The position numbers and the translations under genes were made by a program. A stretch of 64,000 bases of DNA from Rhodothermales bacterium (lineage in GTDB: Bacteria; Bacteroidota; Rhodothermia; Rhodothermales; VXPQ01), in assembly GCA_965248175.1 (NCBI GenBank), contig OZ252093.1:2517762-2581761 (forward strand), written 5' to 3'. The notes below the pieces were generated by a model that saw only the letters and a program-made list of their open reading frames with translations, was not told where the DNA came from and did not search any database. Numbering within the stretch: the first letter of the stretch is position 1; each line of letters starts with the position of its first letter. Shown one piece after another: positions 4,117 to 38,376 of the stretch.

Positions 4117-4531
<415 letters not shown>

Positions 4532-4550
4532 CGCGATATGCCAGACGTGC

Positions 4551-15307: not shown

Positions 15308-15417
15308 ACGTAAAATGTAAAGTTTGACGAGGAATAGAACGGCGCTAAGCAACACACGCCGCATCGTGGTCGTTTCGACCGCCTCCGCAAGCCCTTCTTT
15401 CCGGCGACTTCTTTTGC

Positions 15418-16383
15418 ATGATGAACCTTCCGCACATGCCTGTGGATCCGCCCCGTGCCGAAATGCGGTGGCGGCATCGATTCACCGTCCTGACTGGCGT
15501 CGCCACAGTCCTGCTCATGGCGTGGGGCGCCTTCGTGACCAGTATCAATGCGGGTCTTGCCGTACCGGACTGGCCTTCGTCGTTCAATTCGTACGATCCC
15601 TTCAACCCCTGGCCGGAATGGTGGAAACTCACTCCGGTGTTGGCCGAGCATGGCCATCGTCTCCTCGGCATGTTGACGGGAATGCTGACCCTGATCCTCG
15701 CCGTATGGACCTGGATCGCCGAGCCGCGCGGATGGCTGAAAAAACTTGCCGCCGCCGCGATTGTACTCGTTTCCTTGCAAGGCCTGCTCGGCGGGCTGCG
15801 GGTCGTGTGGCTTTCCCTGGATATTGCCGTGGTTCATGCCTGCATGGCGCAACTGTTCCTCGGCCTTATCGTTGCGATGGCCCTGTTCACGTCGAACGCC
15901 TGGCTGGAGAAGAACACAAAAATTCCCGACTCCGGAAACGTGTCCGGCCTGTGGCGGGCATCGCTTGTAACCCTCGGCTTCCTGTACATCCAGATTATCC
16001 TCGGGGCCTTGCTCCGTCACCCGGGCACAGGCATCAATCCGATCCTTGCAGGCCTCCACATTTTCTGGGCTGCCTGTGTTACCATAGCGATCGCTTATTT
16101 TTTCAGGGGCGTTCTCAAAGGTTTTCGGGCCACGCGCGTGCTCTATCCCGCCGTGCGCCTTCTCGTTATTCTTGTGGCTGTCCAGCTACTTCTGGGCGTT
16201 ACGGCCTATATCGTTACCCTGGACGACGTCGGCATGTTGGAACCGAGTAATCTTCAAGTGGTGGTGAACACCTCTCATATGGTCATCGGAGCGCTCCTGA
16301 TGGCCGCCTCGGTGCTGGCCGTCCTCAGCACATTCCGACTGAAAAGGCTGCCCGAAACCAGCGCCCCCGACTACGCGAAGTAA
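15418..16383 (+). CDS. ctaA: heme A synthase (COX15/CtaA family)
   Basis: GAFVTSINAGLAVPDWPSSF motif. Eight-TM pattern with conserved His residues. Confidence 0.85.
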   Translation: MMNLPHMPVDPPRAEMRWRHRFTVLTGVATVLLMAWGAFVTSINAGLAVPDWPSSFNSYDPFNPWPEWWKLTPVLAEHGHRLLGMLTGMLTLILAVWTWIAEPRGWLKKLAAAAIVLVSLQGLLGGLRVVWLSLDIAVVHACMAQLFLGLIVAMALFTSNAWLEKNTKIPDSGNVSGLWRASLVTLGFLYIQIILGALLRHPGTGINPILAGLHIFWAACVTIAIAYFFRGVLKGFRATRVLYPAVRLLVILVAVQLLLGVTAYIVTLDDVGMLEPSNLQVVVNTSHMVIGALLMAASVLAVLSTFRLKRLPETSAPDYAK

Positions 16384-16399
16384 CGCAGAATCCGCTATA

Positions 16400-17407
16400 T
16401 TGAACTCACCGATCAACCGTCCCCGACACGTGACACTCGTGCCGCAAAGCCCTTCCGAAGACACCCCTCGCAATGCGCTTGCGCCTGGCGCAGAAACCGG
16501 CGCGGCCCATGCGGTGAATCAGGCCCGTTCGCGGTCGAACGTTCTTCGCTCCTACATCGAGCTGGCGAAACCCGAGATCACGCTGCTCGTCGCACTGTCA
16601 TCCGCAGGGGGTTTTTTCCTTGCGCCTGCAGAATTTCTTGACATGGGACGTTTTGTCCTTCTGCTCATTGGCGTTACGCTGACGAGCGCGGGCGCAGGCG
16701 CCCTGAATCACTGGATAGAACGGAATCATGACGGCGTCATGCGCCGGACGATGAACCGCCCTCTCCCCTCGGGCCGCCTCTCCCCGTCGGCAGCACTGTG
16801 CTTCGGAGGTTTCCTGGTTGCAGCGGGCGTTGGGCTGTTGTGCCCGCTCGTCAATCCACTTACCGGCGTGCTGGCGCTGGCGACGGTCTTGCTCTATCTG
16901 TTCGCGTACACCCCCCTCAAGCGCCGTTCCAGATGGAATACACTGGTGGGCACGCTTCCGGGCGCCTTGCCTGCGCTGGGCGGATGGACGGCGGCTACCG
17001 GATCGATCGGCTGGGGCGGCATTGCCGCTTTCTCCATCCTCGCTGCATGGCAAATGCCGCATTTTCTCGCCCTTGCCTGGATGTATCGTAAGGATTACGA
17101 ACGGGGCGGTTATGTCATGCTTCCCGTAGCGGATCCGTCGGGCCGTTCGACAACACGGCAAGCCCTTTTCTTCACCGTCCTTCTCTTCGTGTTGAGCCTC
17201 TGGCCTGTTGCCCTGTCTCTCGCCGGATGGGGCTATGCCATCGGCGCCGTCGTACTGGGCGCATGGTTCCTGCATGCTGCGCTCGCCTTCCACCGCAGCA
17301 GTGAAATTCAGGATGCTCGACGCCTCCTGATCGTATCGATCCGGTACATTCCGGCACTCATTCTCGTCCTCCTTATCGACCGCATCGTACTCGGCGATCT
17401 CTTCTAA
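16400..17407 (+). CDS. ctaB: protoheme IX farnesyltransferase (heme O synthase, UbiA family)
   Basis: YIELAKPEITLLV..., NHWIERNHDGVMRRTMNRPLPSGR (UbiA Asp-rich region). Directly follows ctaA. Non-ATG start, exact start uncertain. Confidence 0.85.
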   Translation: MNSPINRPRHVTLVPQSPSEDTPRNALAPGAETGAAHAVNQARSRSNVLRSYIELAKPEITLLVALSSAGGFFLAPAEFLDMGRFVLLLIGVTLTSAGAGALNHWIERNHDGVMRRTMNRPLPSGRLSPSAALCFGGFLVAAGVGLLCPLVNPLTGVLALATVLLYLFAYTPLKRRSRWNTLVGTLPGALPALGGWTAATGSIGWGGIAAFSILAAWQMPHFLALAWMYRKDYERGGYVMLPVADPSGRSTTRQALFFTVLLFVLSLWPVALSLAGWGYAIGAVVLGAWFLHAALAFHRSSEIQDARRLLIVSIRYIPALILVLLIDRIVLGDLF

Positions 17408-19776: not shown

Positions 19777-22716
19777 CTATCTTGCCTCGAATAGGCTGTC
19801 CGGGAGTATGAAGGTGGCCGGTCCGAGTATGGAACCGTGCGCCTGATCGGCCACGCGCGGCCGGATCTCCACAATTCTCCGGTTCTCGCGTGTCGGATAA
19901 ACCCGGTTCGTGAGCAGAATGACGAACAGGTCCGTGTCGGGATCGACCCAGAACGATGTGCCGGTAAAACCGGTATGCCCGAAACTGCTCGGGCCGGAAC
20001 CTTCGCCAGCGGACGAATATCCCTCCGGGCTCTTCGTATCCCATCCAAGCGCCCGCGTGCTGAGGTCCGGATCCTGTACGGTCGTGAACAGGCGGAGGGT
20101 TTCGGGTGAAATGAACGCCTCCCCGTCCACGCGCCCTTCTTCAAGCAGCATATGGGCGAATTTCGCAAGATCCTCGGCGGTGGAAAACAACCCGGCATGC
20201 CCGGAGACGCCCCCGAGTATCCAGGCGGTTTCGTCATGCACTTCGCCCTGGACGAGCCGCCTGCGGAATGTACGGTCGTGTTCGGTAGGTACTACGTCCG
20301 GATTGGGAGAGCCGGACGACATGAATCCGGTATCGTGCATGCCAAGCGGCTCGAAAATATGCTCCTCGGCATATTCGTCGAAGGGTTGTCCGGTAATCCG
20401 CTCGATGACCAGCATGAGGGAGATCATACTGAAATCACTGTAGCGCATTTCCGTGCCCGGTTCATATTCCAGCGATTCCGCCAGTACCGAATCGATGAGC
20501 GCCTCGCGCGCGACGGTGCCTGTTTCATAAAACCGCCGGTACGGGATGAGCCCGGACGTGTGGGTAAGCAGGTGCCGGATCGTAACGCCTTCTTTGCCGG
20601 ACTGCCGAAACCTGGGGAGATAATCTGCTACCGGTGTATCAAGTCTTAGCTTACCGGCGTCGAACAATTGCATGGCTGCGGTAGTCGTCGCGATAACCTT
20701 CGTGAGCGAAGCAAGATCGAACAACGAGGTGGTGGTGACGGACCGCTCCTCGTCGTAGGTAAAGTGGCCGTACGCTTGCAGTTTGGCGATCACGCCGCCG
20801 CGGCCTATCGCAAGAGCAGCTCCCGGGAAAGCCGTGCTGTCGATGGCGTTCCGGATCAGTGTGTCGAGACGACTGATTACCGTACCGCTCAGGCCGACTT
20901 CTGCGGGGTATCCGGTTCGAATGGATTGCTGGAACAAGTCCATGCCGTCACCGAACGCGTACAGGTCGGGTATGCTGACGGGCAGGCGGCCGGTGATGTC
21001 AGCCTGCCCTGCAAACGCATCGGCAGCAGCCGTCTGGGAGACCTCTGAAGCACTGTATGCGATCAGATAGGAAGCAGGCTGCGCCATATCCCGCACCATG
21101 TACGGATCGCCGAACGAAACGAGTGCTACCGGAGGCCCGTAGTCCACAAGACGTGCAAGAAAAGCCGTTTGCGGGTCTTCGGGACCGTTTTCCTCGTCCT
21201 CGGTTTCTGCACCCCGGGGGCGGGTGCGCAGAAACGCAGACACGACGACAAACGGGTACGCGTCACTCTGCTCCAGAGCGGCTTCGTAGTCTTCCGGGCC
21301 GGACCTGCTGTCAAGACGGAGTGTGTCCACCTTGGCGCCGGGCCGGTTCCAGAGCAAGTCCGCAAGAAAACGACTTCCTGTGGACGGGTTCGAACCGTCC
21401 GAAAGGGTGATACACAGCATGCGGGCCTCCTGGGAAAGAGGGAGAATCCCGCCCGTATTCCGCAGCAGCGTGAGTGACTGCCGGGCAATACCGAGGCTCA
21501 ATGCTCTGTGTTCTTTCAAATCTATTTGCAGGGAGTCCGGGTCCTCGGCAACGCTCCTGTCCATATGCAGTCCTGACCAGGCTTTGGCGCGCAAAATCCG
21601 CATCACAGAGGCATCTATACGTTCTTCTGTGATCGCGCCTTCTCCGATAGCTTGCAACACAGCTTCTCGTGCTGCCCGGGGATCTTCGGAAAGCAGCAAC
21701 ATGTCGGCGCCTGCAACCAGGGACCGAACGGCAATCTCCCCAGTCGGAAACTGCTCTGTGACACCCGCCATATCCAGTGCATCCGTGACGACGAGGCCAT
21801 CGAAATCCAGTTCGTCGCGCAACAGCCCGGCGATGATCTGTGGCGAAAGGCTGGCTGGGAGCGTGGTATCCGGTTCGATCCGGGGAAGCGCAAGATGACC
21901 GACCATGACGCTCATCACGCCGTCCTGCACCAGTCTTCGGAAGGGAACGAGTTCCAGTGCCTCGAGCCGGTCAGGCCCGAAAAAGAGCACAGGCAACGCC
22001 ATGTGCGAATCGACGGAGGTATCCCCATGGCCCGGAAAATGCTTTGCGGTGGCGAGCACGCCGGCTTCCTGCAGCCCGAAGGCAAAGGCCGCCGCCATAC
22101 TCGCGACAACTTCCGCCCGCTCACTGAACGAACGGGTGTTGATGACAGGATTGTCGGGATTGTTGTTTACGTCGGCTACGGGAGCAAGTACGTGCCGTGT
22201 TCCGATAGCCCGTGCCTCCCGGCCTGTGATGTACCCGGCCATGCGCGCCCATTCGACGTCTCCTGTGGCGCCCATCGCCATGGCCCGTGGAAAGACAGTC
22301 GTCCCCTCAACGCGCATCCCCGCACCCCACTCCATATCCTGGGCAATAAGCAGCGGGAGCCTCGCACGACCTTGCAGGTCATTCACGAGGGCGATCTGAT
22401 CCGATGGGTTTCCCTGAAAAAAGGTGACGCCGCCGAGTCCAAATTGCTCGACCAGATCGACGAGGTCCTGGTATGCGGCATCGTCCGGGTCCATCATCCG
22501 GCCATAGGCGCGCACGGAAAACAGCTGGGAGACCTTCTCTTCCAGCGTCATGGACCGGAGCTGCTCTTCGGCCCATGCTTCCGTACCGGGCCAGAGGTCG
22601 TCCGCATCGGGAGAACCTGGGAAAATGTCTGCCAGAAGCAAGACATACGCGACGATCAATGCACCGAGCGTCAGGGCGGCGCCGAGGAGAAGGCGACGGT
22701 GGAGGAAGCGGGGCAT
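19777..22716 (-). CDS. fusion protein: glycoside hydrolase family 3 (NagZ-like) N-terminal domain + beta-lactamase-fold serine hydrolase C-terminal domain
   Basis: KHFPGHGDTSVDSH (GH3) in the N-terminal half. SLTKVIATT (SxxK) plus a YSD motif in the C-terminal half. N-terminal signal/anchor. Confidence 0.85.
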   Translation of the reverse strand: MPRFLHRRLLLGAALTLGALIVAYVLLLADIFPGSPDADDLWPGTEAWAEEQLRSMTLEEKVSQLFSVRAYGRMMDPDDAAYQDLVDLVEQFGLGGVTFFQGNPSDQIALVNDLQGRARLPLLIAQDMEWGAGMRVEGTTVFPRAMAMGATGDVEWARMAGYITGREARAIGTRHVLAPVADVNNNPDNPVINTRSFSERAEVVASMAAAFAFGLQEAGVLATAKHFPGHGDTSVDSHMALPVLFFGPDRLEALELVPFRRLVQDGVMSVMVGHLALPRIEPDTTLPASLSPQIIAGLLRDELDFDGLVVTDALDMAGVTEQFPTGEIAVRSLVAGADMLLLSEDPRAAREAVLQAIGEGAITEERIDASVMRILRAKAWSGLHMDRSVAEDPDSLQIDLKEHRALSLGIARQSLTLLRNTGGILPLSQEARMLCITLSDGSNPSTGSRFLADLLWNRPGAKVDTLRLDSRSGPEDYEAALEQSDAYPFVVVSAFLRTRPRGAETEDEENGPEDPQTAFLARLVDYGPPVALVSFGDPYMVRDMAQPASYLIAYSASEVSQTAAADAFAGQADITGRLPVSIPDLYAFGDGMDLFQQSIRTGYPAEVGLSGTVISRLDTLIRNAIDSTAFPGAALAIGRGGVIAKLQAYGHFTYDEERSVTTTSLFDLASLTKVIATTTAAMQLFDAGKLRLDTPVADYLPRFRQSGKEGVTIRHLLTHTSGLIPYRRFYETGTVAREALIDSVLAESLEYEPGTEMRYSDFSMISLMLVIERITGQPFDEYAEEHIFEPLGMHDTGFMSSGSPNPDVVPTEHDRTFRRRLVQGEVHDETAWILGGVSGHAGLFSTAEDLAKFAHMLLEEGRVDGEAFISPETLRLFTTVQDPDLSTRALGWDTKSPEGYSSAGEGSGPSSFGHTGFTGTSFWVDPDTDLFVILLTNRVYPTRENRRIVEIRPRVADQAHGSILGPATFILPDSLFEAR

Positions 22717-23318: not shown

Positions 23319-23612
23319 ATGTCAAGACGCACACGCAGAACCCATAGTCCTTCGTTCAAGGCGAAGGTAGCCCTCGCCGCCGTTCGCGGCGACCGTACGC
23401 TGGCCGAACTCGCCGAGCGCTTCGAGGTGCACCCGAACCAGATACAATCGTGGAAGAAGCAGCTGGTAGAGACCGCCGAGGAGGCTTTCACCCGAGGCCG
23501 CGGCGGCGCTCCGGACGAGCGCGACGACCGGATAAAGGTGCTTCACGCGAAGATCGGAGAGTTGTCGATGGAGAAGGATTTTTTATCGAAGGCGCTCGGT
23601 CGAGACCTCTAG
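23319..23612 (+). CDS. IS3-family transposase OrfA (HTH)
   Basis: 97 aa, SFKAKVALAAVRGDRTLAELAERFEVHPNQIQSWKKQL helix-turn-helix region. Confidence 0.9.
   Translation: MSRRTRRTHSPSFKAKVALAAVRGDRTLAELAERFEVHPNQIQSWKKQLVETAEEAFTRGRGGAPDERDDRIKVLHAKIGELSMEKDFLSKALGRDL
23579..23585 (+). other. candidate -1 programmed ribosomal frameshift heptamer T TTT TTA
   Basis: In the orfA frame it reads GA[T TTT TTA] TCG. The -1 frame continues FFIEGARSRPL... into OrfB. Confidence 0.6.
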
Positions 23613-24454
23613 CCGAGCGCCGGGCGAGGATAGATCGCGCCCATACCATGCCCGTGGTTCGCCAGTCGAGGCTCTTGTCGTTGAGTCGTTCGACGGCCTA
23701 CTATACCCCTCGCGCAGAGAGCGAAGAGAACCTTGCGGCGATGAAAGAGATCGACAGGCTCTATATGGAGCGTCCCACAAGCGGATCGCGCACGATAAAG
23801 AGCATGCTCGAGGCGCGAGGCGTCCGTGTCGCCAGAAGCCGCGTCGTTCGCCTCATGCGCCTGATGGGCCTTAGGGCCATTTACCCCAAGCGCCGCACGT
23901 CGTCTCCGGGAGAAGGGCACAGGATTTATCCTTATCTGCTCAGAGGCATGAAGGTGACGAGACCCCGGCAGGTCTATGCGGCGGACATTACGTACATCCC
24001 TATGGCGAAGGGCTTTCTTTATCTTGTGGCCGTGATCGACTGGTATAGCCGCAAGGTGCTCGCCCACCGGCTATCGAACACGATGGACGCCGCCTTTTGC
24101 GTCGAAGCGATGGAAGAAGCCATTGTCCGCTACGGTGCACCTGAGGTCTTCAATACCGATCAGGGAGCGCAGTTTACCTCCGAGGCGTTCACCGGTGCGC
24201 TCAAGGAGCATGGCGTGCGCATCTCTATGGACGGCAAGGGCCGCTGGCTCGATAACGTGTACGTGGAGCGCCTCTGGCGCAGCCTCAAGCAGGAAGAAGT
24301 CTACCGGCGCGCGTACGAGACGGTGAGCGAGGCCGGGAAGGGGATTGCCGATTACCTGCGCTACTTCAACGAAGAGCGGCCTCACCAGGGACTTGACAAC
24401 CGGACCCCCGACGACGTATTCTACAAACGAAAACCGCTGCCCAAAGCGGCATAA
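23579..24454 (+). CDS. IS3-family transposase OrfB (DDE integrase domain; made as an OrfAB fusion by -1 frameshift)
   Basis: ADITYIP...VIDWYSRKV (D), FNTDQGAQFTS (D), VERLWRSLKQEEV (E). The frame is -1 relative to orfA. Confidence 0.9.
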   Translation, partial: FFIEGARSRPLAERRARIDRAHTMPVVRQSRLLSLSRSTAYYTPRAESEENLAAMKEIDRLYMERPTSGSRTIKSMLEARGVRVARSRVVRLMRLMGLRAIYPKRRTSSPGEGHRIYPYLLRGMKVTRPRQVYAADITYIPMAKGFLYLVAVIDWYSRKVLAHRLSNTMDAAFCVEAMEEAIVRYGAPEVFNTDQGAQFTSEAFTGALKEHGVRISMDGKGRWLDNVYVERLWRSLKQEEVYRRAYETVSEAGKGIADYLRYFNEERPHQGLDNRTPDDVFYKRKPLPKAA

Positions 24455-28121: not shown

Positions 28122-28865
28122 CTATTCCAGGCGGAACCGGAACGTGACGATGCCCGTCTGCGGCTCCTGCGGCGCGTTGGGCGGCAGGGGATTGAAGCGC
28201 CAGCGCTGCAAGATGTCCATTGTGGCCTTCTCCAGAGTGGCATCGCCCTTCAGGAGCAGAAAACGCTGCACGATCCGACCTTGCGGATCGACGGTAATGC
28301 GCACCCGGATCGTCGCATTCACCTGCTCCCGGTACTCGGGAATCGGAGCATACATAGGGTCGCGATTCAGCCCTTCTATTTCGAAGGGGGCAGTGGTCAA
28401 TTCGTCCAGGCCTTCTCCCGTTTCAGCAGGGCGCGTTTCACCCGTTTCGCTGGGCACGGCGCTACCAAGCGGGCGAACGGGGGGTGGTTCGGGCTCCGGA
28501 TCGGGCTCTTCCGTCGCTTCCTCGCTATCCTGCCGTTCGGGAGAAACCTCCTCTATCTCCGGCGTCGTTACCTGATCTTCCTCGACGACAGGTTGCGTCT
28601 GGTCCGGCAAATCCACCTGTCTGGCTTCTTCCGGCGCAGGCGCAGGTTCCTTCGGGGGTTCCTGCGGCTCTTCCGGAGCGACGGTTTCCTCCGAAGCGCG
28701 GCTCTCCGCATAGGGGCCGAATTCCACCTCTACAAATCCTATTTGCCGGGAATCAGCCTGCGACACCGTAAGAAAAGCGAAACCGAGGAGAACCCCGGCG
28801 TGCAGTACAATGCTGGCCCCCAAACCGATCCAGTCGTTCTTGTTCATGCGATCCGCTGGTTGCAA
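28122..28865 (-). CDS. tonB: energy transducer TonB
   Basis: N-terminal anchor, Pro/Glu-rich spacer, C-terminal TonB domain (...RVRITVDPQGRIV...ILQRWRFNP...). Alternative start at 28847. Confidence 0.85.
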   Translation of the reverse strand: MQPADRMNKNDWIGLGASIVLHAGVLLGFAFLTVSQADSRQIGFVEVEFGPYAESRASEETVAPEEPQEPPKEPAPAPEEARQVDLPDQTQPVVEEDQVTTPEIEEVSPERQDSEEATEEPDPEPEPPPVRPLGSAVPSETGETRPAETGEGLDELTTAPFEIEGLNRDPMYAPIPEYREQVNATIRVRITVDPQGRIVQRFLLLKGDATLEKATMDILQRWRFNPLPPNAPQEPQTGIVTFRFRLE

Positions 28866-29105
28866 ACGCCCCTGTCAGAGGGCATTGAAGCGTTTGAAGA
28901 GAAGAATGCCGGAAAAGAAAGAAAACGACATAACAACAACATAACATAGAACACGCCAGGAGGGTTCGGGATCCCCCCAGACCTGTATTGACTGCGCCCG
29001 TTTTATACGCAAAACGGTCGCGCGAAAACGCAGATTCCTTGTTACTTTATCATGTCTGTCGCATGCTATCACAATTTTCCCGAACCCGCCCGGCCACGAA
29101 AAATC

Positions 29106-30014
29106 ATGAACACCCCCCGGCATCAGGCCGATCTGCCCCGCATGCGTGAGCAGCTCCTGACATGGATTGCCCGGCAAGCCAGTGAGGAAGCCATGCAATG
29201 GCTGCGCACCCGTCATGCAGAAATTTCAGGGGGCGCTCCCGCTTCCAAATGTTTTATGGCGTTCAGTGGCGCGCCTCGCCGGATTACCAAAGAAACGCTG
29301 GCCCTCGACAAGGCGGACCTGCAGAAAGCCGACGCCCTGCGTCCGGGTTGGAACCCGTCTGCCTGGAGTGTCGACGAAGCCGCCCGCGCCCTGTTGATCC
29401 TGTCTTTCCCCGCAGTCGACGAAAACGTATATGTCGGCATGGTCGAGCAAGTATTCTCGACTGCCGATGTCCGCGAATCGGCGGCGCTTTACCGGATGTT
29501 GCCGCTCTACCCCTTTCCCGAACGTTTCCAGGCACGCGCTGCAGAGGGCATTCGCAGCAATATGACCTCTGTATTCCAGGCCGTCGCCCACCACAATCCC
29601 TATCCCTCGGAGTATTTCGACGAGGGTGCATGGAATCAGATGGTGCTGAAGGCCCTCTTTACCGACAGTCCCCTGTACAAGGTGAGCGGGTTGGACGCAC
29701 GCGTGAACCCACCCCTTGCACGTATGCTTGTGGATTACGCACACGAGAGATGGGCTGCCGGACGCACCGTTTCTCCCGAACTCTGGAGACCTGTGGGACC
29801 CTTTGCGGCCGATGGGTATTTGCACGACCTCGAACGGGTCCTGACCGGCGGCGAAGAGATGGAACAGGAAGCCGCCGCGCTGGCGCTCGCGGATGCGAAC
29901 ACGCCCGCCGCCACCGAACTTCTTGACAGATTTTCCATCCTGAAACAACGCATCGGAGCCGGCGAACTGAACTGGGAATCGTTCAGCCGGAACCGTATCC
30001 GGGGCTCCGCATAG
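29106..30014 (+). CDS. eboA: putative EboA-family protein (first gene of the ebo cluster)
   Basis: No enzymatic motif recognised. The call rests on its position immediately upstream of eboB and on cluster context. An alternative ATG lies at 29052. Confidence 0.5.
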   Translation: MNTPRHQADLPRMREQLLTWIARQASEEAMQWLRTRHAEISGGAPASKCFMAFSGAPRRITKETLALDKADLQKADALRPGWNPSAWSVDEAARALLILSFPAVDENVYVGMVEQVFSTADVRESAALYRMLPLYPFPERFQARAAEGIRSNMTSVFQAVAHHNPYPSEYFDEGAWNQMVLKALFTDSPLYKVSGLDARVNPPLARMLVDYAHERWAAGRTVSPELWRPVGPFAADGYLHDLERVLTGGEEMEQEAAALALADANTPAATELLDRFSILKQRIGAGELNWESFSRNRIRGSA

Positions 30015-30089
30015 GTTTCCGCACACATAACAGACGCTCCCCGGTACCGATTTCGTTTTTACAGGCTCCGATTATACATCCATCCCGTT

Positions 30090-31010
30090 ATGCCGACCCG
30101 CCCTTCCCTGTTTATCGATCCGCATGTCCACATGATTTCCCGGACAACGGACGACTACGAGGCCATGCGCGCCGCCGGCGTCGTAGCCGTGATAGAACCG
30201 GCTTTCTGGCTGGGACAACCGCGCACCACACTTGGGGCCTTCAAGGATTACTTCTCCATGATCGTGGGCTGGGAACGGTTCCGGGCAGGACAATTCGGCG
30301 TTCGGCACTACTGTACCATCGGACTCAATTCAAAAGAGGCCAATAACGAACCTCTTGCAGACGAAGTGATGGAACTCCTGCCGCTCTATGCCGCCAAGGA
30401 AGGGGTCGTTGCGATCGGGGAAATCGGGTACGATGACATGACGCCCGCCGAAGACAAGTATTTTCGGCTGCAACTCGAACTGGCGAAAGAACTCGACATG
30501 CTCGTGCTGATTCACACCCCGCATCGTAACAAAAAAGAGGGTACGAGTCGAAGCATGGATGCCTGTGACGATATCGGACTTGCCCCCGACCGGGTCATCG
30601 TGGATCATAACAACGAGGAGACGGTCCAGGAAGTCCTTGACCGGGGCTACTGGGCCGCATTCACCATCTACCCCTTCACGAAAATGGGCAATGAGCGGAT
30701 GGTCGAAATTGTCCGCGAATACGGCGCCGAGCGCATTTTCATCGACAGTGCGGCGGATTGGGGCATCAGCGACCCGCTGGCCGTACCCAAAACGGCCCGG
30801 CTCATGGCTGAGCGGGGCATCGCAGAGGACCTGATCCGCACGGTTACGTACGACAACGCCCTCAAGGCATACGGGCAAAGCGGGCAGTTTTCGGAAAAAG
30901 ACTGGCTGGAGCCGGCGCCGATCGACCAGCGTGATCTGTACGGCGGCAACTCGGTGCTGCGAGGCGGACAAGCCCCTGTCGTGAAGGAGAAAGGATTGAT
31001 CATCGAGTGA
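30090..31010 (+). CDS. eboB: TatD-family metal-dependent hydrolase, EboB-type
   Basis: FIDPHVHMISRTTDDY (HxH), ...EIGYD..., LIHTPH..., ...FIDSAADWG motifs of the TatD/amidohydrolase fold. ebo context. Confidence 0.8.
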   Translation: MPTRPSLFIDPHVHMISRTTDDYEAMRAAGVVAVIEPAFWLGQPRTTLGAFKDYFSMIVGWERFRAGQFGVRHYCTIGLNSKEANNEPLADEVMELLPLYAAKEGVVAIGEIGYDDMTPAEDKYFRLQLELAKELDMLVLIHTPHRNKKEGTSRSMDACDDIGLAPDRVIVDHNNEETVQEVLDRGYWAAFTIYPFTKMGNERMVEIVREYGAERIFIDSAADWGISDPLAVPKTARLMAERGIAEDLIRTVTYDNALKAYGQSGQFSEKDWLEPAPIDQRDLYGGNSVLRGGQAPVVKEKGLIIE

Positions 31011-32154
31011 TTGGCCCGTCCTGTGCCGCCGCACCGTCCGGGGACCGGAAATCCACAAGATCGTAACTCGTGCTGCGCCCTCCTCCCGGGTTGCGAAGAA
31101 GGATACCGCGCTCAATGAGTTCCGTTATATCCCGCAGCGCGGTGTCCTGGGAGCATTTCGCAAGCTTCCCCCATTTCGATGTGGTGATCTTGCCCTCGAA
31201 CCCATCGAGAAGGCGGGTGAGAACATAGTGCTGGCGCTCGTTGAGAGCAAACCCCGCAATGCGCTCCCGGAACCGAGCCTTGTCGAACACTGCGTCAAGG
31301 GTTGTCCCGGCGCCGTCAATGGCCCGTTTCAGACAATCCAGAAACCAGTACATCCATAAGGAAATGTCCGTCGAGCCTTGCTGGGTTACTTCCAGTATCC
31401 TGTAATAGCCTATGCGCTCCTTCCGGATTTGCGACGACATGCTGTAGAAGCGTTGCGAACTCCTTTCGGAACGGGCCAGCGCCATATCCGCAATGGCCCT
31501 GGCGATACGCCCGTTGCCGTCGTCAAAAGGGTGGATAGTGACAAACCAGAGGTGGGCCAATCCGGCCCTGAGCACACCATCCATTTCGCCGGACGCGTTG
31601 AACCACTCGAGAAAACGTTTCATTTCCTGATCGAGCCGCTCGGCAGGCGGAGCCTCGAAATGTACCTGCTCATGACCGACAGGGCCGGAAACCACCTGCA
31701 TGGGGCCGGTGCGATCATCACGCCAGGCCCCTGTAACAATCCGTCTCAAACCGCTGTAGCCGTCAGGGAACAACAAGGCATGCCAACCCCATAGCCGCTC
31801 GACAGTCAGGGGCAAGTGATAACAGCCCGTAGCGTCAAGCATCATCCGGACCATACCTTCTACATTGCGGTCCACACGGCCAAGGCCACCGATATCTATC
31901 CCAAGATGACGGGCAAGCGAGGAGCGAACCTGCTCCGTGTCCAACTTCTCCCCTTCGATGTCACTACTCTGAAGGACATCCTCAGTAAGCGTTTGGAGAA
32001 CCGCTTCCTGTCGAAGGTCGAAACTCAGCGCCTCCATGCGGCCAAGGAGACGCCCCTGACGGTACCGTACGGTAGCCAGCATCTTGGTCAATGCCTCCTG
32101 ATTCCAGTGGAAGCAAGGCCAATCAGGATGCTCATGGAGATATATTCTACGCAT
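31000..32154 (-). CDS. Fic family protein (DUF4172 N-terminus, Fic domain, C-terminal winged-helix)
   Basis: Active-site HPFDDGNGRIARA. N-terminal HEHPDWPCFHW (DUF4172). SSDIEG matches the (S/T)xxxE(G/N) inhibitory motif. Start at the internal ATG, 32154. Confidence 0.9.
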   Translation of the reverse strand: MRRIYLHEHPDWPCFHWNQEALTKMLATVRYRQGRLLGRMEALSFDLRQEAVLQTLTEDVLQSSDIEGEKLDTEQVRSSLARHLGIDIGGLGRVDRNVEGMVRMMLDATGCYHLPLTVERLWGWHALLFPDGYSGLRRIVTGAWRDDRTGPMQVVSGPVGHEQVHFEAPPAERLDQEMKRFLEWFNASGEMDGVLRAGLAHLWFVTIHPFDDGNGRIARAIADMALARSERSSQRFYSMSSQIRKERIGYYRILEVTQQGSTDISLWMYWFLDCLKRAIDGAGTTLDAVFDKARFRERIAGFALNERQHYVLTRLLDGFEGKITTSKWGKLAKCSQDTALRDITELIERGILLRNPGGGRSTSYDLVDFRSPDGAAAQDGPITR

Positions 32155-32405
32155 AATATGCGGTGATTGTACGTCATAGTCGCCGCAAATGCAAATAATC
32201 GCCGCAAAATTTGCATAGAAAAGAAATATTGGCGAATTCGTCCACCCCTTGCACAGCGCTCGTAGCCTACCCCGCGAAACATGAGGCAACGCCCCCTTGT
32301 TTCTTGATCTTTTCGGCAGCGAAGGGGTATCATACCGCAAAAGCCGGTAAAATCGGGCCGGCCAACCTTGTGTACAGCCATATCATAGCAGGAAAGCCCT
32401 TGCCG

Positions 32406-33623
32406 ATGCAAACAATCCGGCAGGATATTCACGTAACGTTTCGATACGACGTACATTTCGTCACGGACGCTTTCAACCCGGAAAACGACCTGCTCGGCCG
32501 CATCGTTGAAACGGAAGAGGACCTTGCCTCCCGCAAGATACTGACCGTTATCGACGAGGGGCTGCTGCCCCACTATCCGGACCTCCCCGAGCGCGTGGGC
32601 GCCTACTTTTCGCGCCGGGCCGTTGCGTTGAGCCCGCCCCCCACCGTATTTGCGCCTGCGGGAGAAGCGGCCAAAAATGACCCGACGCTTGTCAGTGATC
32701 TGCACGCCGCCATACGACAAGCCGGGCTATGTCGACACTCGTACATCCTGGCGATCGGGGGCGGCTCCGTTTTGGACCTTGCAGGGTACGCCGCCGCCAC
32801 CGCACACCGGGGCATCCGCCTGATTCGCATGCCTACTACGGTACTCGGCCAGAACGATTCAGGCGTGGGTGTAAAAAACAGTGTGAATGCATTGCACGCC
32901 AAGAACTTCCTGGGGACGTTCGCGCCTCCGTACGCCGTAGTCAACGACCTTTCGTTCCTGGCCTCGTTATCCGACCGCGACTGGCGGAGCGGTATCGCCG
33001 AAGCAATCAAAGTAGCGCTTATCAAAGACACCGCTTTCTTCGACGAACTCGAAGCGAATGCAGAGCGCCTTGCGCCGCCCCGGCGGGATGCGAACGCAAT
33101 GACCCGGCTCATTTACCAGTGCGCCACCCTCCATCTCGACCATATCGCCACGTCCGGGGATCCTTTTGAGATGGGCGCCTCCCGTCCCCTCGACTTCGGC
33201 CACTGGGCCGCGCACCAGCTGGAGCAACTCACAGACTACGAACTCCGGCACGGGGAAGCTGTGGCTATCGGTATTGCGCTCGACGCAACCTATTCGCACC
33301 TGTGCGGCCTCCTCCCCACAAGCGACTGGGGAAGAGCCCTGGACCTCCTTGATGCAGTGGGTTTCAACTTGTACGTACCCGAAATCGACGAACACATGGA
33401 TGATCCGGAGCATCCGCGATCTGTTTTCCGAGGTCTCGAAGCCTTCCGGGAACACCTCGGCGGCGAGTTGACCATTATGTTGCTGGCAAACATCGGCCGG
33501 GGCATAGAGGTGCACGATGTCGATCTGGCCGTGTACCGCCGTGCAATGACCCTCTTGCGCACGCGGAAAACCGGCGCCAATGTCCGGAACGCCGCCGAAA
33601 ACATCGTCGCAAATACCCCCTGA
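32406..33623 (+). CDS. eboD: 3-dehydroquinate synthase-fold sugar phosphate cyclase, EboD-type
   Basis: GGGSVLDLAGYAAATAHRGIRLIRMPTTVLGQNDSGVGVKNSVN and HGEAVAIG motifs of the DHQS/EEVS superfamily. ATG at 32406. Confidence 0.8.
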   Translation: MQTIRQDIHVTFRYDVHFVTDAFNPENDLLGRIVETEEDLASRKILTVIDEGLLPHYPDLPERVGAYFSRRAVALSPPPTVFAPAGEAAKNDPTLVSDLHAAIRQAGLCRHSYILAIGGGSVLDLAGYAAATAHRGIRLIRMPTTVLGQNDSGVGVKNSVNALHAKNFLGTFAPPYAVVNDLSFLASLSDRDWRSGIAEAIKVALIKDTAFFDELEANAERLAPPRRDANAMTRLIYQCATLHLDHIATSGDPFEMGASRPLDFGHWAAHQLEQLTDYELRHGEAVAIGIALDATYSHLCGLLPTSDWGRALDLLDAVGFNLYVPEIDEHMDDPEHPRSVFRGLEAFREHLGGELTIMLLANIGRGIEVHDVDLAVYRRAMTLLRTRKTGANVRNAAENIVANTP

Positions 33624-33630
33624 CGCTCCC

Positions 33631-34875
33631 ATGCGCATTCGGCAAGGCGATAGCCTGGAACTGACCTACTGCGCCAACATCCATCCCGGAGAAACGCTCG
33701 ACGAGGTGGAGGAAAACATCCGCACGTATGCAACCGCCGTCAAGAAACAGGTGGCGCCCGAGGCTTCCATGGGAATTGGCCTGCGGCTCTCCAACCGTGC
33801 GGCAGAGGAACTGACCGGAAACGAAGCCGGACTGGAACGTTTTTGCAGCCTGTTCGAAGACCATGGGCTGTATGCCTTCACGATCAACGGTTTCCCGTAC
33901 GGCAATTTTCACCGGCAGCGTGTCAAGGACGAGGTATACAAGCCGGACTGGCGTACTGCCGAGCGGCGTGTCTATACAGAGCGCCTCGCAGAGATCCTGG
34001 CGCGGCTTCTCCCTGACGGCGTCGAGGGCAGCATTTCGACTTCCCCCATCTCCTACAAACCGTGGCTTGCGAACCAGGATGCACGGGACGACGCCCTGCG
34101 TGCGGGAGCCGGACACCTCGCAGAAATCGCCTTCCGGCTTTTCGAACAACGCGAACGAACCGGACAGCTCATCCACATCGGCATGGAGCCGGAGCCGGAC
34201 TGCCTGATCGAAAACACCGCCGAAACCGTGTCCTTCTTCGAGGAATGGCTCTGGACGCACGGTGCAAGACGTCTGACACAGGAACACGGTTTGGCTTCGA
34301 CCCAGGCGGAAGATATCCTGCGTGAGCATATCCGCCTGTGCTACGACACATGCCATTTTGCGGTAGAATTCGAATCACCCGGTGAGGCCCTGTCCGCTTT
34401 TGGGCGAGCGGGAGTCCGGCTCAGCAAAATCCAGATCAGCGCCGCATTACGTGTCCCGCTGGAAAAACCGGATGCTGCGGGTCGACGGACGTCCCGGAAC
34501 GAATTGGCTGAGGCGCTGGAACCCTTCGCCGAATCGACCTACCTGCACCAGGTGGTGGCCCGGTCTGAAGACGGTACGTTACACCGCTACCGGGACCTGC
34601 CCGACGCCTTGCCCTGCCTTATGTCCGAGGATGCGGAAGAATGGCGCATCCATTACCATGTGCCCGTTTTTATCGACCGGTTTCCGCATTTCTACTCGAC
34701 GCAGGAAGACATTACGGCCACTTTGGCGCAGGTACTTCGGGATGCGTCGTGCCCTCACCTCGAGATAGAAACCTACACCTGGGAAGTGCTTCCCGACCGG
34801 CTCAAAACGGACATCGTACCCTCCATCGTGCGCGAGTACGCATGGGTGATGGACTGCCTCGAAAAAGCCGCATAA
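33631..34875 (+). CDS. eboE: xylose isomerase-like TIM-barrel protein, EboE-type
   Basis: About 414 aa. Starts 8 nt after the eboD stop. Sugar-phosphate isomerase/epimerase-like pattern. Assigned mainly from cluster order. Confidence 0.7.
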   Translation: MRIRQGDSLELTYCANIHPGETLDEVEENIRTYATAVKKQVAPEASMGIGLRLSNRAAEELTGNEAGLERFCSLFEDHGLYAFTINGFPYGNFHRQRVKDEVYKPDWRTAERRVYTERLAEILARLLPDGVEGSISTSPISYKPWLANQDARDDALRAGAGHLAEIAFRLFEQRERTGQLIHIGMEPEPDCLIENTAETVSFFEEWLWTHGARRLTQEHGLASTQAEDILREHIRLCYDTCHFAVEFESPGEALSAFGRAGVRLSKIQISAALRVPLEKPDAAGRRTSRNELAEALEPFAESTYLHQVVARSEDGTLHRYRDLPDALPCLMSEDAEEWRIHYHVPVFIDRFPHFYSTQEDITATLAQVLRDASCPHLEIETYTWEVLPDRLKTDIVPSIVREYAWVMDCLEKAA

Positions 34876-34897
34876 GGCCGTCTGTCGCCGCACCGCC

Positions 34898-36277
34898 ATG
34901 CCGAAACTCGCCGTACTGAATGTCGTCGGACTGACCCCCCGCCTCTTGCCGCAGGCGCCTTTTCTGGCATCCTGGACACGACGAGGAAAGGCGGCGGCGG
35001 TGATACCCGTCCTGCCCGCCGTCACCTGCTCCATGCAGTCCACCCTGTTGACCGGCGCAATGCCCTCGGAACATGGCATCGTCGGCAACGGATGGTATGT
35101 TCGGGACGAGGGCGAAATTCGATTCTGGCGGCAGTCGAACCGGCTCGTGCAGCATGAAAAAATATGGGAAAAGGCACGGCGCCTCGGTATCCCGGACTTC
35201 ACCTGCGCCAACATGTTCTGGTGGTACAATATGTACTCGTCCGTGGACTATGCGGCCACGCCACGCCCCATGTATCCCGCCGATGGGCGCAAAATTCCGG
35301 ATATCTGGACGGAACCGGTTGAACTGCGATCGGAACTCCGCCAAAAATCAGGATCGTTCCCGTTATTCAAGTTCTGGGGACCCGGAACGACCATCCGTTC
35401 GAGCGAATGGATTGCACGGGCGGCTCTGCACGTGGATGCCCGTCACAATCCCGGCATGACGCTCATCTACCTGCCCCATCTCGATTACGTACTGCAGCGC
35501 GAGGGTCCGGCAGGAGCAAGCGTAGCCGAAGAAGTGGCACAGATTGACGGGGTCTGCGAGGAACTCATCACGCACTACGAATCGCAGGGAGCCGCTGTCA
35601 TCGTCCTGTCGGAATACGGCATTACGCCGGTGCATCGATCCGTGTCGCTCAACCGCATTCTCCGGCGGGAAGGATTCCTGCAGGTACGTGAAGAACTGGA
35701 ACGGGAACTCCTTGACGCAGGCGCCAGCCAGGCCTTCGCTGTCGCGGATCATCAGGTGGCGCACGTATACGTGAACAACCGGGATGTGCTGGAGGACGTA
35801 CGCACACTCGTCGAAGCGACAAACGGAGTTGCTGCCGTCCTGTACGGGGAAGAGCGCGCCGCCCACGGACTGGATCACCCCCGGGCCGGCGATCTCGTAG
35901 CCGTTGCCGACCAGGATGCCTGGTTCACATACTACTACTGGCTGGATGATGACCTGGCGCCCGATTTTGCGCGGACTGTGGACATCCATCGGAAACCGGG
36001 CTACGATCCCTGCGAACTCTTCCTGGACCCGGCCCTGCCCTCGGCCCGATTGCGGGCGGGGTTCCGGCTATTGCAAAAGAAACTGGGTTTCCGCTACCTG
36101 CTGGATGTGATCCCGCTGGACCCATCGCTTGTCAAGGGATCGCATGGGCGGCTGCCCGACGATCCGCTGGACGGGCCGCTCATCCTATCCAACCACCCCG
36201 AACTACTCCCCGGCTCGCCCCTGCCTGCAACAGACATACAGGACATCATGCTGGCGCATCTTCAGGTTCCCCTTTAG
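34898..36277 (+). CDS. eboF: alkaline phosphatase-superfamily nucleotide pyrophosphatase/phosphodiesterase, EboF-type
   Basis: LNVVGLTP...PAVTCSMQSTLLTGAMPSEHGIVGNGW (nucleophile loop), ...LYLPHLD..., ...SEYG... motifs of type I phosphodiesterases. Confidence 0.8.
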   Translation: MPKLAVLNVVGLTPRLLPQAPFLASWTRRGKAAAVIPVLPAVTCSMQSTLLTGAMPSEHGIVGNGWYVRDEGEIRFWRQSNRLVQHEKIWEKARRLGIPDFTCANMFWWYNMYSSVDYAATPRPMYPADGRKIPDIWTEPVELRSELRQKSGSFPLFKFWGPGTTIRSSEWIARAALHVDARHNPGMTLIYLPHLDYVLQREGPAGASVAEEVAQIDGVCEELITHYESQGAAVIVLSEYGITPVHRSVSLNRILRREGFLQVREELERELLDAGASQAFAVADHQVAHVYVNNRDVLEDVRTLVEATNGVAAVLYGEERAAHGLDHPRAGDLVAVADQDAWFTYYYWLDDDLAPDFARTVDIHRKPGYDPCELFLDPALPSARLRAGFRLLQKKLGFRYLLDVIPLDPSLVKGSHGRLPDDPLDGPLILSNHPELLPGSPLPATDIQDIMLAHLQVPL

Positions 36278-37235
36278 ACCTCCACACGTCCCGAAGCAGG
36301 TATCGCGGGCGTCCCTTCACTTCTTCATACACTCGCGCCAGATACGCTCCCGTAACGCCGAGAAAGAACAACTGCACCCCCCCGAAAAAAAACGCGGCAA
36401 AGATAAGCGATGTCCAGCCGGGGACTACGCCGCCGAATACATATTTCTGCAGCAGCGCCCAGGCGATGCCCACCATCGACAGGAGCGAAATAGTCATTCC
36501 GATGCCTACGGCATACCATAGCGGCTTCTGAGAAAACGACGTAATGCTATCGACGGCAAGGCGGAGAGATTTACGGAAAGAGTATTTGGCCTTGCCTGCC
36601 GCACGGGGAGGTCGTCGATACCGGATCCCCGTCTGCTCGAAACCGAGCCAGGCAACCAACCCCCGCACAAACGGTTGGCTCTCGCCAAGGCGGCGGTAGG
36701 CATCCAGTACGGGGCGGCTCACCAACCGGAAATCCCCCGTATCTCTCGGGGCCTGCACATCCGTCATATGGTTGAAGAAGCGGTAGAACAGCCAGGCGGC
36801 GGTGCGCTTGAAAACCGTTTCGCCCTCCCGCTCCTCACGGAGCCCATAGACGACATCGTATCCTTCCCGCCATTTGTCGATCATTCTCGCGGCCACCGAA
36901 AGCGGGTCTTGTAAATCCGCGTCCATGATAATAGCGGCATCCGCGGTCACGAATTCCATGCCCGCCGTAATGGCGATCTGGTGGCCGAAATTGCGTGAAA
37001 ATTGCGCCAGAACGTAGCCGGGCCTGCCGGCAGCGAGTGTGCGCACCTTGTCCACAGTGCCATCCCGGCTGCCGTCGTCAACGAGAATAACTTCAACGAC
37101 TTCCGGATGCTCTCCCCGAAAAGCCTCAATCTCCCCGATAAGGAGTGGCGCTACCGCCTCCTCGTTGTAGAGGGGCACAACAAGTGCTACCGTACGGCGG
37201 GGTACGGATTCCGATGTGTATTCCGAGTTGTCCAT
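36246..37235 (-). CDS. glycosyltransferase family 2, polyprenyl-phosphate glycosyltransferase type (GtrB/ArnC/DPM1-like) with two C-terminal TM helices
   Basis: VVPLYNEE...LVDDGSRDGT...SRNFGHQIA...MDADLQDP motifs. Start at the internal ATG, 37235. Confidence 0.85.
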   Translation of the reverse strand: MDNSEYTSESVPRRTVALVVPLYNEEAVAPLLIGEIEAFRGEHPEVVEVILVDDGSRDGTVDKVRTLAAGRPGYVLAQFSRNFGHQIAITAGMEFVTADAAIIMDADLQDPLSVAARMIDKWREGYDVVYGLREEREGETVFKRTAAWLFYRFFNHMTDVQAPRDTGDFRLVSRPVLDAYRRLGESQPFVRGLVAWLGFEQTGIRYRRPPRAAGKAKYSFRKSLRLAVDSITSFSQKPLWYAVGIGMTISLLSMVGIAWALLQKYVFGGVVPGWTSLIFAAFFFGGVQLFFLGVTGAYLARVYEEVKGRPRYLLRDVWRSKGEPEDAPA

Positions 37236-37278
37236 GCCAGGATATCCGGGAGAGCAGAGGCCCCGCAATATACGGCAA

Positions 37279-38376
37279 TCATTCGGCAGCGCGCCGCCAT
37301 GCCCCGCGCGCAAGTACGACTCGAGCCGATATGCGATGGGTATAGCCGAGATCGGAAGCAAGGCCCGCAAAATTTCCGAACCCGTAATTGATGGCCAATC
37401 GGCCGAGATGCAACCCGGCCCCTACCGTCGGGGCAGCGTCCCATCCCTCTCGTTCGGATTTGAGGATATCCGTTAAACCTGCGCGCAGCGCCATGACCTT
37501 CCGAAAGCCGTATTCCACGCCCAGGCGGGGATGATACGATACCCCTCCTGTGTGCAGCGCATAGACTTGCTGCCCCTCGAAAGCCATATCCACATCCAAT
37601 CCAAGGGTGATGCGGTGTGCCCCAAAGTCCAGGACATACCCCGATCCGAGCCGCAGAAGCGGTAACACGGTCTCCACGCCGCCCTTGGGAATCGTTTGGC
37701 CAAAAACATCCTGGATGTTCGAAAGGAGATCGCGGTTTACGTTCCAGGATTGTCTCATCCCGGCAGCATCCTGCAAGTTGACCCCTGCCATGAAAGCTCC
37801 GCGCCGATACAGCCCCCCCACATCGAAACTGTATCCCCAGGCATCGGCAAAATCACCGATGCTTCGGCGGATGATCTTCGCGGTCACGCCGGCGGCAAGG
37901 TCCGTGCGTACAAGGCGGGCATAGCTTACGAAGAACGCCGCATCCGCCGCAGAAAAGCTGGTAATGTGCTCTTCGGGATGAGGTCGAGGCTGGTTGCGCT
38001 CAGGATCCCAAGCGTCAAGCGTGTTTTTTATATCGTTCACCCCACTCCGGAAGAACGATGCTCCCAGCGTTGAGCGGGCATTGACAGGCCATGCAACAGC
38101 CCCGTAATCGAACGAAACAATCCCGGCAAAACGCTCCGCATGCATGTATTCCACTTCGGGAAACACCGTCCGGCTGAGGCCGGCGGGATTCCAGTAGCCT
38201 GCACTCACGTCGTCCGCCAACGCAATATGGGCCCCTCCCATACCCAGTGCCCGCCCGCCTGCACCGGTTGCGAGAAAATCAGCTCCATAGCTAACCACTT
38301 GCTGTCCCTTGGCAGGCGCCGCCGTAAGCAGGGCCACAAAAAGGCTTGCGCAAAAAAACCATCGGCCTGCGGTCAT
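37279..38376 (-). CDS. PorV/PorQ-family outer-membrane beta-barrel protein
   Basis: Signal peptide. GGRALGMGGAHIALADDVSAGYWNPAGL motif is typical of the PorV/PorQ (UPF0164-like) family. Confidence 0.6.
   Translation of the reverse strand: MTAGRWFFCASLFVALLTAAPAKGQQVVSYGADFLATGAGGRALGMGGAHIALADDVSAGYWNPAGLSRTVFPEVEYMHAERFAGIVSFDYGAVAWPVNARSTLGASFFRSGVNDIKNTLDAWDPERNQPRPHPEEHITSFSAADAAFFVSYARLVRTDLAAGVTAKIIRRSIGDFADAWGYSFDVGGLYRRGAFMAGVNLQDAAGMRQSWNVNRDLLSNIQDVFGQTIPKGGVETVLPLLRLGSGYVLDFGAHRITLGLDVDMAFEGQQVYALHTGGVSYHPRLGVEYGFRKVMALRAGLTDILKSEREGWDAAPTVGAGLHLGRLAINYGFGNFAGLASDLGYTHRISARVVLARGAWRRAAE

Follow-up and report, generated by a model that had tools for sequence, protein, structure and literature searches.

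An ebo biosynthetic cluster without eboC, and with a Fic gene in the eboC position, in a clade of Rhodothermales

Thousands of bacterial genomes, and the plastids of some algae, contain the ebo gene cluster. We analyzed a variant of this cluster that lacks eboC and carries a Fic gene in the eboC position, located in a 64,000-nucleotide stretch of DNA from a Rhodothermales bacterium (contig OZ252093.1, forward-strand positions 2,517,762 to 2,581,761; this whole stretch is referred to as the window, and its first letter is position 1). The links of ebo to defined chemistry, through DEI synthase, the farnesylation of hydroxyquinaldic acids, and thallusin, are recent. According to 2024 work as cited in PMC12904256, EboD is a DEI synthase, with mannose-6-phosphate as its reported substrate and DEI, a free-standing cyclitol, as its product. 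EboC (Ubi-297) farnesylates quinoline-like acceptors, the hydroxyquinaldic acids, with a preference for 8-hydroxyquinaldic acid (PMC9235831), and a May 2026 preprint ties the ebo genes to thallusin and saccharoquinoline biosynthesis (10.64898/2026.05.21.724671). In Stieleria, the ΔeboB, ΔeboC, ΔeboE, and ΔeboF mutations each abolish thallusin, the preprint calls these four genes the core set, and among 3,403 ebo clusters lineage-specific absence was reported only for eboA and eboD (10.64898/2026.05.21.724671). A survey of 148 taxa by Yurchenko et al. in 2016 described cases lacking eboD as well as rearrangements and contained no genuine eboC-less cluster, the sole candidate being a sequencing gap (PMC5133447). 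A preliminary description of the window had treated the ebo product as chemically undefined, a statement made outdated by the EboC acceptor work (PMC9235831) and the thallusin preprint (10.64898/2026.05.21.724671). A clade that lacks the "core" eboC yet has all the other ebo genes is therefore new, a variant of a known cluster that was not previously described.

Six long open reading frames (ORFs) fill positions 29052 to 36277 of the window. NCBIfam and Pfam identify five of them as eboA, eboB, eboD, eboE, and eboF, all on the plus strand and in the canonical order A-B-D-E-F between 29106 and 36277, in agreement with the ebo-type cluster proposed in the preliminary description. The eboA gene (29106-30014, with a maximal ORF start at 29052) encodes 302 amino acids (aa) and matches the EboA domain model NF035938 at 181.8 bits (cut-off 50); its score against NF035937 is 313.1 bits, slightly below the cut-off of 320, and its orthologues in relatives are called at 302 aa and carry PF28008 EboA. 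The product of eboB (30090-31010, 306 aa) is a TatD-like metal-dependent hydrolase (PF01026, 65.5 bits) that shares 69-88% identity with EboB of canonical, eboC-containing clusters. The sugar-phosphate cyclase with a 3-dehydroquinate synthase (DHQS) fold encoded by eboD (32406-33623, 405 aa) is of the EboD, or DEI synthase, type, scoring 547 bits against NF004852 (cut-off 333), and fails as the genuine 3-dehydroquinate synthase AroB (TIGR01357 cut-off 305, score 213.1 bits); with the EboD proteins of canonical clusters it shares 54-68% identity. The xylose-isomerase-like TIM barrel encoded by eboE (33631-34875, 414 aa) reaches 477.9 bits against the equivalog model NF035939 TIM_EboE (cut-off 250), and eboF (34898-36277, 459 aa) encodes a member of the type I phosphodiesterase/alkaline-phosphatase family (PF01663, 215.3 bits) with 54-72% identity to EboF of canonical clusters. 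Two assignments that the preliminary description had left to family searches, the membership of the eboA and eboE products in their families and the separation of the DHQS-fold gene from AroB, are upheld by these scores. The locus is a genuine ebo (thallusin-type) biosynthetic cluster minus eboC.

The interval between eboB and eboD, where eboC normally sits, holds a minus-strand gene for a protein with DUF4172 and Fic domains (31000-32154; 384 aa from a likely ATG start, with a maximal ORF of 31000-32340), followed by a 251-bp spacer. The 3' end of this Fic gene overlaps the eboB stop by 11 bp. The cluster is not a single co-directional operon, because the Fic gene parts eboAB from eboDEF, and an Rfam scan placed no RNA element inside it. 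No EboC remnant was detected in the interval by tblastn with the EboC proteins of three relatives or by a hidden Markov model (HMM) made from 51 EboC sequences, and the same HMM found none in the eboB-eboD intervals of ten related loci. The preliminary description had likewise seen a minus-strand Fic gene and an AT-rich spacer in the eboC slot, with no membrane-protein coding remnant, and each of these observations stands. Elsewhere in the 64-kb window, tblastn with the three EboC proteins returned nothing else EboC-like beyond a weak match to CtaB. Seven stop-to-stop ORFs of at least 150 residues have four or more predicted membrane helices, and only one of them, at 16343-17407, is a UbiA protein. 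We considered this gene (16400-17407) as a displaced eboC and rejected it: it encodes the heme O synthase CtaB (TIGR01473, 281 bits), adjoins CtaA, scores only 30 bits against the EboC model NF035940 (cut-off 250), and accounts for the weak match to the EboC HMM. The CtaA (COX15) and CtaB genes together occupy 15418-17407 on the plus strand. No UbiA-superfamily protein other than CtaB is encoded in the 64 kb, and Pfam searches elsewhere in the window gave no other prenyltransferase, no polyprenyl synthase, and no terpene cyclase. Also rejected as an eboC substitute was a polyprenyl-phosphate-type GT2 glycosyltransferase (PgfS/ArnC-like; 36246-37370, minus strand) whose 3' end overlaps the eboF stop by 32 bp. 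Its gene also lies beside some canonical clusters (L005 and L018; loci are cited by L numbers) and is absent from subclade B of the clade described below, so that it does not belong to the ebo variant.

Homologues of the window EboE number in the thousands, and their contexts were obtained by exact look-up and by scanning a single genome for each GTDB species, with tblastn analysis. The arrangement A-B-D-E-F without eboC is shared by a clade of at least 10 species-representative Rhodothermales metagenome-assembled genomes (MAGs). Six of the ten are complete chromosomes of 2.7-3.2 Mb (OZ244993.1, OX638293.1, OZ220746.1, OX638295.1, OZ246975.1, and OZ220686.1), and the arrangement recurs in L088, a circular contig of 3.07 Mb, and in the fragment L017. 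An exact-sequence look-up of the window EboF gave no match, and the closest relative found for the window is OZ244993.1, with an EboE 97% identical. The order A-B-Fic(-)-D-E-F is seen in L008-L011, L013-L016, and L088, and orthologues of the Fic gene occupy the same position in L008-L011, L013-L017, and L088. The only clade member without Fic is L012 (also L004, OZ246975.1), which has A-B-D-E-F. On the question raised in the preliminary description, whether Fic in place of eboC is confined to this lineage, the arrangement proves to be an inherited state of the whole clade and is not peculiar to this genome (at least 10 species-level genomes). Loss of eboC through a mis-join in assembly or binning has in its favor that all clade members are MAGs, but identical junctions were assembled independently in six or more complete chromosomes, several short-read MAGs have them too, and divergence among clade members is consistent with vertical inheritance. 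Because the same structure is found in independently assembled complete chromosomes, an artefact is excluded, and we take its probability to be practically nil.

Sister Rhodothermales (L005, L018, L019, and L020), with EboE 59-66% identical to that of the window, have the canonical A-B-C-D-E-F cluster, and their flanks match those of the window partly or wholly, with TonB upstream and PorV2-like, PhoU, and pstBAC genes downstream. In all, 51 loci carry eboC. Where eboC went undetected in L049, L058, and L064, the locus is cut by a contig end, and five further loci (L025, L060, L087, L039, and L048) show eboDEF or eboEF alone on sequence that is not cut; these look like split clusters, since eboA and eboB are missing from the locus too. 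None of the other loci lacking a detected eboC has A, B, D, E, and F together. In Balneolales (Fodinibius, Rhodohalobacter, and others; L028, L033, L043, L050, L052, L062, L077, and L078) the cluster is divergent, eboCBA(-)/eboDEF(+), and in the Balneolaceae loci L025, L060, and L087 eboDEF has no other ebo gene within ~8.7 kb upstream. Splitting of the cluster at the C|D boundary is therefore a recurrent feature of this part of the tree.

A neighbor-joining tree with bootstrap, made from the five concatenated proteins (1,845 columns), separates the eboC-less genomes from their canonical sisters at 100% bootstrap and divides them into two subclades, with the Fic-less L012 sister to the Fic-bearing L014, again at 100%. 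As all members but L012 carry an orthologous Fic gene, both the eboC loss and the Fic gain fall on the stem branch, and the position of L012 beside Fic-bearing L014 makes its lack of Fic a secondary loss. The parsimonious history comprises one eboC loss on the clade stem, one Fic gain on the same branch, and a later Fic loss in L012. An alternative order, with eboC lost before Fic was inserted, was suggested by the comparison of L004, without Fic, and L001, with Fic, and is refuted by the wider sampling and the tree. Between Fic and eboD, two subclade B loci have an additional 0.8-1.8 kb (L013, 6954-8761; L015, 7958-8759) of seemingly AT-rich DNA with small ORFs, of which some are hydrophobic; no UbiA-like ORF and no match to the EboC HMM was found in it. 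A close relative of the window genome, "Bacteroidetes bacterium SB0662_bin_6," has an EboE 88% identical to that of the window, and the SB066x MAG series is listed among sponge-associated Poribacteria MAGs, so a sponge association of the clade is plausible.

The five remaining genes show the marks of a maintained system. All five ebo ORFs are full length in 10/10 clade genomes, and pairwise Nei-Gojobori ratios of nonsynonymous to synonymous substitution (dN/dS) within the clade are 0.02-0.11 for EboB, 0.15-0.27 for EboA, 0.16-0.27 for EboD, 0.13-0.27 for EboE, and 0.14-0.20 for EboF. This overall range of 0.02-0.27 is no higher than that of the flanking housekeeping genes (PhoU, 0.17-0.33; PstB, 0.06-0.29; TonB, 0.10-0.20). 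Conservation of at least 97% among 41-50 canonical clusters singles out 516 alignment columns, and in 487 of these no clade member differs; most of the changes are conservative, and only two, EboD T19V and EboF L187M, are clade-wide. Near-invariant columns kept in all clade members amount to 118/124 in EboB, and the corresponding figure for EboD is 112/114. Full-length ORFs, low dN/dS, and retention of family-invariant residues show that the cluster is not decaying, and some activity of the cluster without a neighboring eboC is under selection. Were the locus a remnant, eboC loss would have inactivated the pathway and the other genes would be heading for pseudogenization, as might be imagined from the core status of eboC and from the small genomes (2.7-3.4 Mb) and at least one close relative in the SB0662 MAG series, which make genome reduction plausible. 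This outcome is contradicted by genes that have stayed intact in 10 species diverged to a synonymous distance (dS) of ~0.8, under constraint like that of their neighbors and with their invariant residues in place, and we regard it as very improbable.

The same residues bear on the possibility that eboC is truly absent and that the remaining enzymes were repurposed to a non-thallusin pathway, for example toward a DEI-derived cyclitol. The two clade-wide substitutions at otherwise invariant positions would fit such a shift, as would the free-standing nature of the EboD product DEI (per the work cited in PMC12904256) and the fact that the functions of EboA, EboB, EboE, and EboF are not biochemically defined. 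However, the near-complete conservation of family-invariant residues argues for unchanged chemistry in each enzyme, and no new biosynthetic gene has joined the cluster, Fic alone having done so. Repurposing is accordingly a minor alternative that we judge improbable.

The Fic protein has the domains PF13776 (DUF4172, 113.9 bits) and PF02661 (Fic, 60 bits), which place it in the DUF4172-Fic subgroup of the Fic/Fido AMP-transferase family, and its active-site motif, HPFDDGNGRIAR at residues 208-219, fits the canonical HxFx(D/E)GNGRxxR. An N-terminal SSDIEG at residues 63-68 fits the (S/T)xxxE(G/N) motif, which is auto-inhibitory in Fic proteins, and the best solved relative is PDB 8cil (338 bits). 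Within the clade, dN/dS of 0.17-0.33 indicates purifying selection, and the dS of Fic between the window and L014, a comparison across the subclades, is 0.76, matching the 0.70-0.87 of the ebo genes. Homologues 70-72% identical occur in Terriglobales, Chloroflexota, Acidobacteriota, Rokubacteria, and Syntrophobacteraceae. DUF4172-Fic proteins in general keep ~70% identity across such distant phyla, an unusually high value that points to either frequent horizontal transfer or very strong constraint, and the pattern of spread is consistent with a mobile gene having entered the ebo cluster horizontally. Nothing seen here ties Fic functionally to the ebo pathway, and we know of no ebo association of the DUF4172-Fic family. 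The loss of Fic in L012, which keeps all its ebo genes, indicates that Fic is dispensable for upkeep of the cluster, and most likely it is a functionally unrelated passenger in the ebo locus. As a separate observation, L089 has a Fic homologue (6001-7143, 71% identity) in a variable region of an unrelated 3.4-Mb genome, with a DNA methyltransferase, two PaREP1 proteins, a MazE antitoxin, and NurA as neighbors.

The spacer between the divergent fic and eboD genes (32155-32405, 251 bp) has 50.6% GC against 58.3% for the whole window, and in alignment its eboD-proximal part is conserved across the clade. A promoter-like element lies there on the plus strand (32304-32333), with a sigma-70-like TTGATC-18 nt-TATCAT and a core motif ATCTTTTC-N-GGTAT at 32307-32330, and this block is invariant throughout the clade, the Fic-less L012 included. 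Scans of 28800-36600 for sigma-70 promoters and terminators gave nothing above shuffled expectation, and the eboD-proximal match taken alone is at chance level; what weight it has comes from cross-species conservation only. A search of the 2.7 Mb of fetched loci with a derived motif, ATCTTTTY-N10-15-GKTAY, gave 15 matches, 14/15 of which lie 93-150 nt 5' of eboD, a count that is partly circular because the motif was derived from those same sequences. These 14 include the canonical clusters of L005, L018, and L019, where the motif sits between eboC and eboD, and so the promoter-like element is older than the eboC loss, a point that comes directly from the sequences. With such a motif already in front of eboD in canonical sisters, the split into two units needed no new promoter. 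Transcription running through from eboA to eboF is implausible with an opposite-strand gene lying between eboB and eboD, and eboAB and eboDEF must now be read as two units, with fic diverging from eboDEF. The suggestion in the preliminary description that the cluster was remodeled and split into eboAB and eboDEF is in this respect substantiated, by the opposite-strand Fic gene and the element kept in front of eboD. The locus also illustrates how an operon with a pre-existing internal promoter can accommodate a gene inserted on the opposite strand.

Whether eboC has moved to another place in the genome is the central question for the pathway. EboC is absent within ~28 kb on either side in the window and within 10 kb in any clade locus. 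For a genome-wide comparison, EboC of L005, the closest canonical relative, was used as the query against a collection of 5.8 billion proteins, and the best 120 matches were taken, all of them at least 53% identical and scoring at least 303 bits. None of these best 120 homologues is on the clade contigs of 3,245,449, 2,878,570, 2,817,622, 2,686,407, 3,162,098, 3,069,934, and 3,074,883 bp. Proteins of the clade are present in the collection, as EboE and/or Fic from all seven of these large contigs were returned by it, and an eboC passed on vertically should rank high among the matches, at the ~59-65% identity to the query shown by EboC of L018-L020. The result is suggestive with regard to genome-wide absence, and we consider it likely, but unproven, that eboC is absent from the whole genome in this clade.

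It would follow from a relocated eboC, or from another prenyltransferase of the UbiA or ABBA type having taken over, that the pathway is complete and that a prenylated meroterpenoid is still made. Planctomycetota are indeed known to have scattered or split ebo genes, as some Balneolaceae and some cyanobacteria do in the present data; strong purifying selection on the remaining genes is equally expected from a complete pathway; and the loss of thallusin upon eboC deletion in Stieleria implies that EboC is normally indispensable. The searches around the clade loci and among the best 120 homologues speak against such a copy, and we hold a complete pathway to be a serious but unlikely alternative. 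The proposal of the preliminary description that eboC is encoded elsewhere found no support in this limited test.

The best overall explanation, to which we would give an even chance, is ancestral loss of eboC, gain of Fic, retention of a five-gene cluster, and a pathway that ends before farnesylation. Within it, the comparative data show that eboC, the gene for the UbiA-like prenyltransferase, was lost in the common ancestor of an uncultured marine Rhodothermales clade, and that the branch which lost it also gained, at exactly the eboC position and on the opposite strand, a Fic gene whose family is very widely shared between phyla. The deletion was clean, sparing the 3' end of eboB and the pre-existing promoter-like element ~100 nt upstream of eboD, and eboAB and eboDEF have become separate units in consequence. 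Given clade genomes that apparently have no eboC, the pathway would stop before farnesylation: EboA, EboB, EboE, and EboF, with L-aspartate, may convert the EboD product DEI toward a non-terpenoid, hydroxylated quinaldic-acid core, and the pathway would end with this core or an earlier DEI/cyclitol derivative, not with saccharoquinoline or thallusin. Of the three possibilities raised in the preliminary description, namely a pathway running without prenylation, an eboC encoded elsewhere, and a remodeled and split cluster, the pathway without prenylation is thus favored, although unproven.

Several points weigh against this explanation. An EboC copy less than ~53% identical, a xenologous copy, or a non-orthologous prenyltransferase would escape a search of the best 120 matches. 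Clusters with eboABC and eboDEF apart are known in some cyanobacteria and Planctomycetota (10.64898/2026.05.21.724671), and such a split is also seen in the Balneolaceae loci L025, L060, and L087. The predicted end product is a guess, because the thallusin model comes from a preprint and the steps of EboA, EboB, EboE, and EboF are not biochemically defined. The clade organisms, moreover, are uncultured and known here from genomes alone. The stricter claim, that there is no EboC at all in the clade and that a prenylation-free ebo pathway has been maintained over long evolutionary time, is tentative, and we place it somewhat short of an even chance. If it is true, the EboA/B/D/E/F module would have a selectable function of its own, probably the making of a soluble metabolite of the hydroxylated quinaldic-acid type or derived from DEI, and not of a membrane-anchored or meroterpenoid product. 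Hydroxylated quinaldic acids chelate metals, and the metabolite could be a metal chelator or a host-directed signal. The cluster adjoins TonB and a TonB-dependent receptor, but we give this adjacency no weight as a hint of metal chelation because TonB also adjoins the canonical sister clusters. The clade would then be a natural ΔeboC experiment, contradicting the notion of eboB, eboC, eboE, and eboF as one indivisible core, and the early part of the ebo pathway may give a useful product by itself. In practical terms, eboABDEF of this clade is a ready-made gene set for heterologous expression, with which the still-unknown pre-prenylation intermediate could be identified, and surveys of "thallusin potential" based on ebo genes should explicitly require eboC.

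The rest of the window is largely housekeeping in character, with Pfam matches to GroEL, DnaE, DnaG, UvrC, PPK, MutY, and the pst operon, plus two transposases. The first of these, an IS3-family transposase (rve integrase core and HTH_21; 23450-24454, plus strand), lies between a GH3/beta-lactamase fusion gene and a DUF4249 gene, and its insertion looks recent and private to the window genome, as the 92%-related L001 has only an 84-aa ORF there. The second (DDE_Tnp_1/DUF772, IS4/IS5-like; 53652-54599, plus strand) is flanked by a gene of unknown function and an unannotated ORF. The fusion gene itself (19777-22716, minus strand, 979 aa) joins the N- and C-terminal GH3 domains to a beta-lactamase fold and is conserved in L001. 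A class A bacterial RNase P RNA at 4119-4534 on the plus strand (251 bits) is the only Rfam family at gathering score in the window, and a gene for a PorV2-like outer-membrane protein (37279-38376, minus strand) comes next after the GT2 gene. A phosphoglucomutase/phosphomannomutase gene lies ~14 kb upstream of the ebo cluster (13898-15364, minus strand); mannose-6-phosphate is the reported EboD substrate, but nothing indicates that the two are linked.

Set beside the canonical eboABCDEF of Bacteroidota, Cyanobacteria, and eustigmatophyte plastids, the window cluster shares five of six families together with their order and orientation, its proteins are 42-88% identical, and the sister Rhodothermales also share its flanks and the motif in front of eboD. 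The differences are that the canonical cluster has eboC, whereas the window locus, and apparently its genome, does not, and that here a Fic gene interrupts the operon. This Fic protein has the same domain architecture, active site, and N-terminal motif as the DUF4172-Fic protein of PDB 8cil and, more distantly, SoFic (3eqx) and FICD, but its relatives of 70-72% identity are in unrelated contexts and phyla, unlike the window gene in its ebo cluster. In having more than one transcription unit, the window resembles the split or scattered ebo systems of Planctomycetota, Arenibacter, Adhaeribacter, and Balneolaceae (CBA/DEF and isolated DEF), but those systems keep all or at least the core genes in the genome, and in the divergent Balneolales arrangement eboC remains with eboAB, unlike in the window clade. 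The nearest parallels to a lineage-specific loss of one enzyme are the Actinomycetota-type cluster without eboD (10.64898/2026.05.21.724671) and the ABCEF cluster of Leeuwenhoekiella (PMC5133447). In Actinomycetota, co-located ino1-3 genes bypass the missing step, which is the early cyclization, whereas in this clade of Rhodothermales the step lost is the late prenylation and no candidate substitute accompanies the loss.

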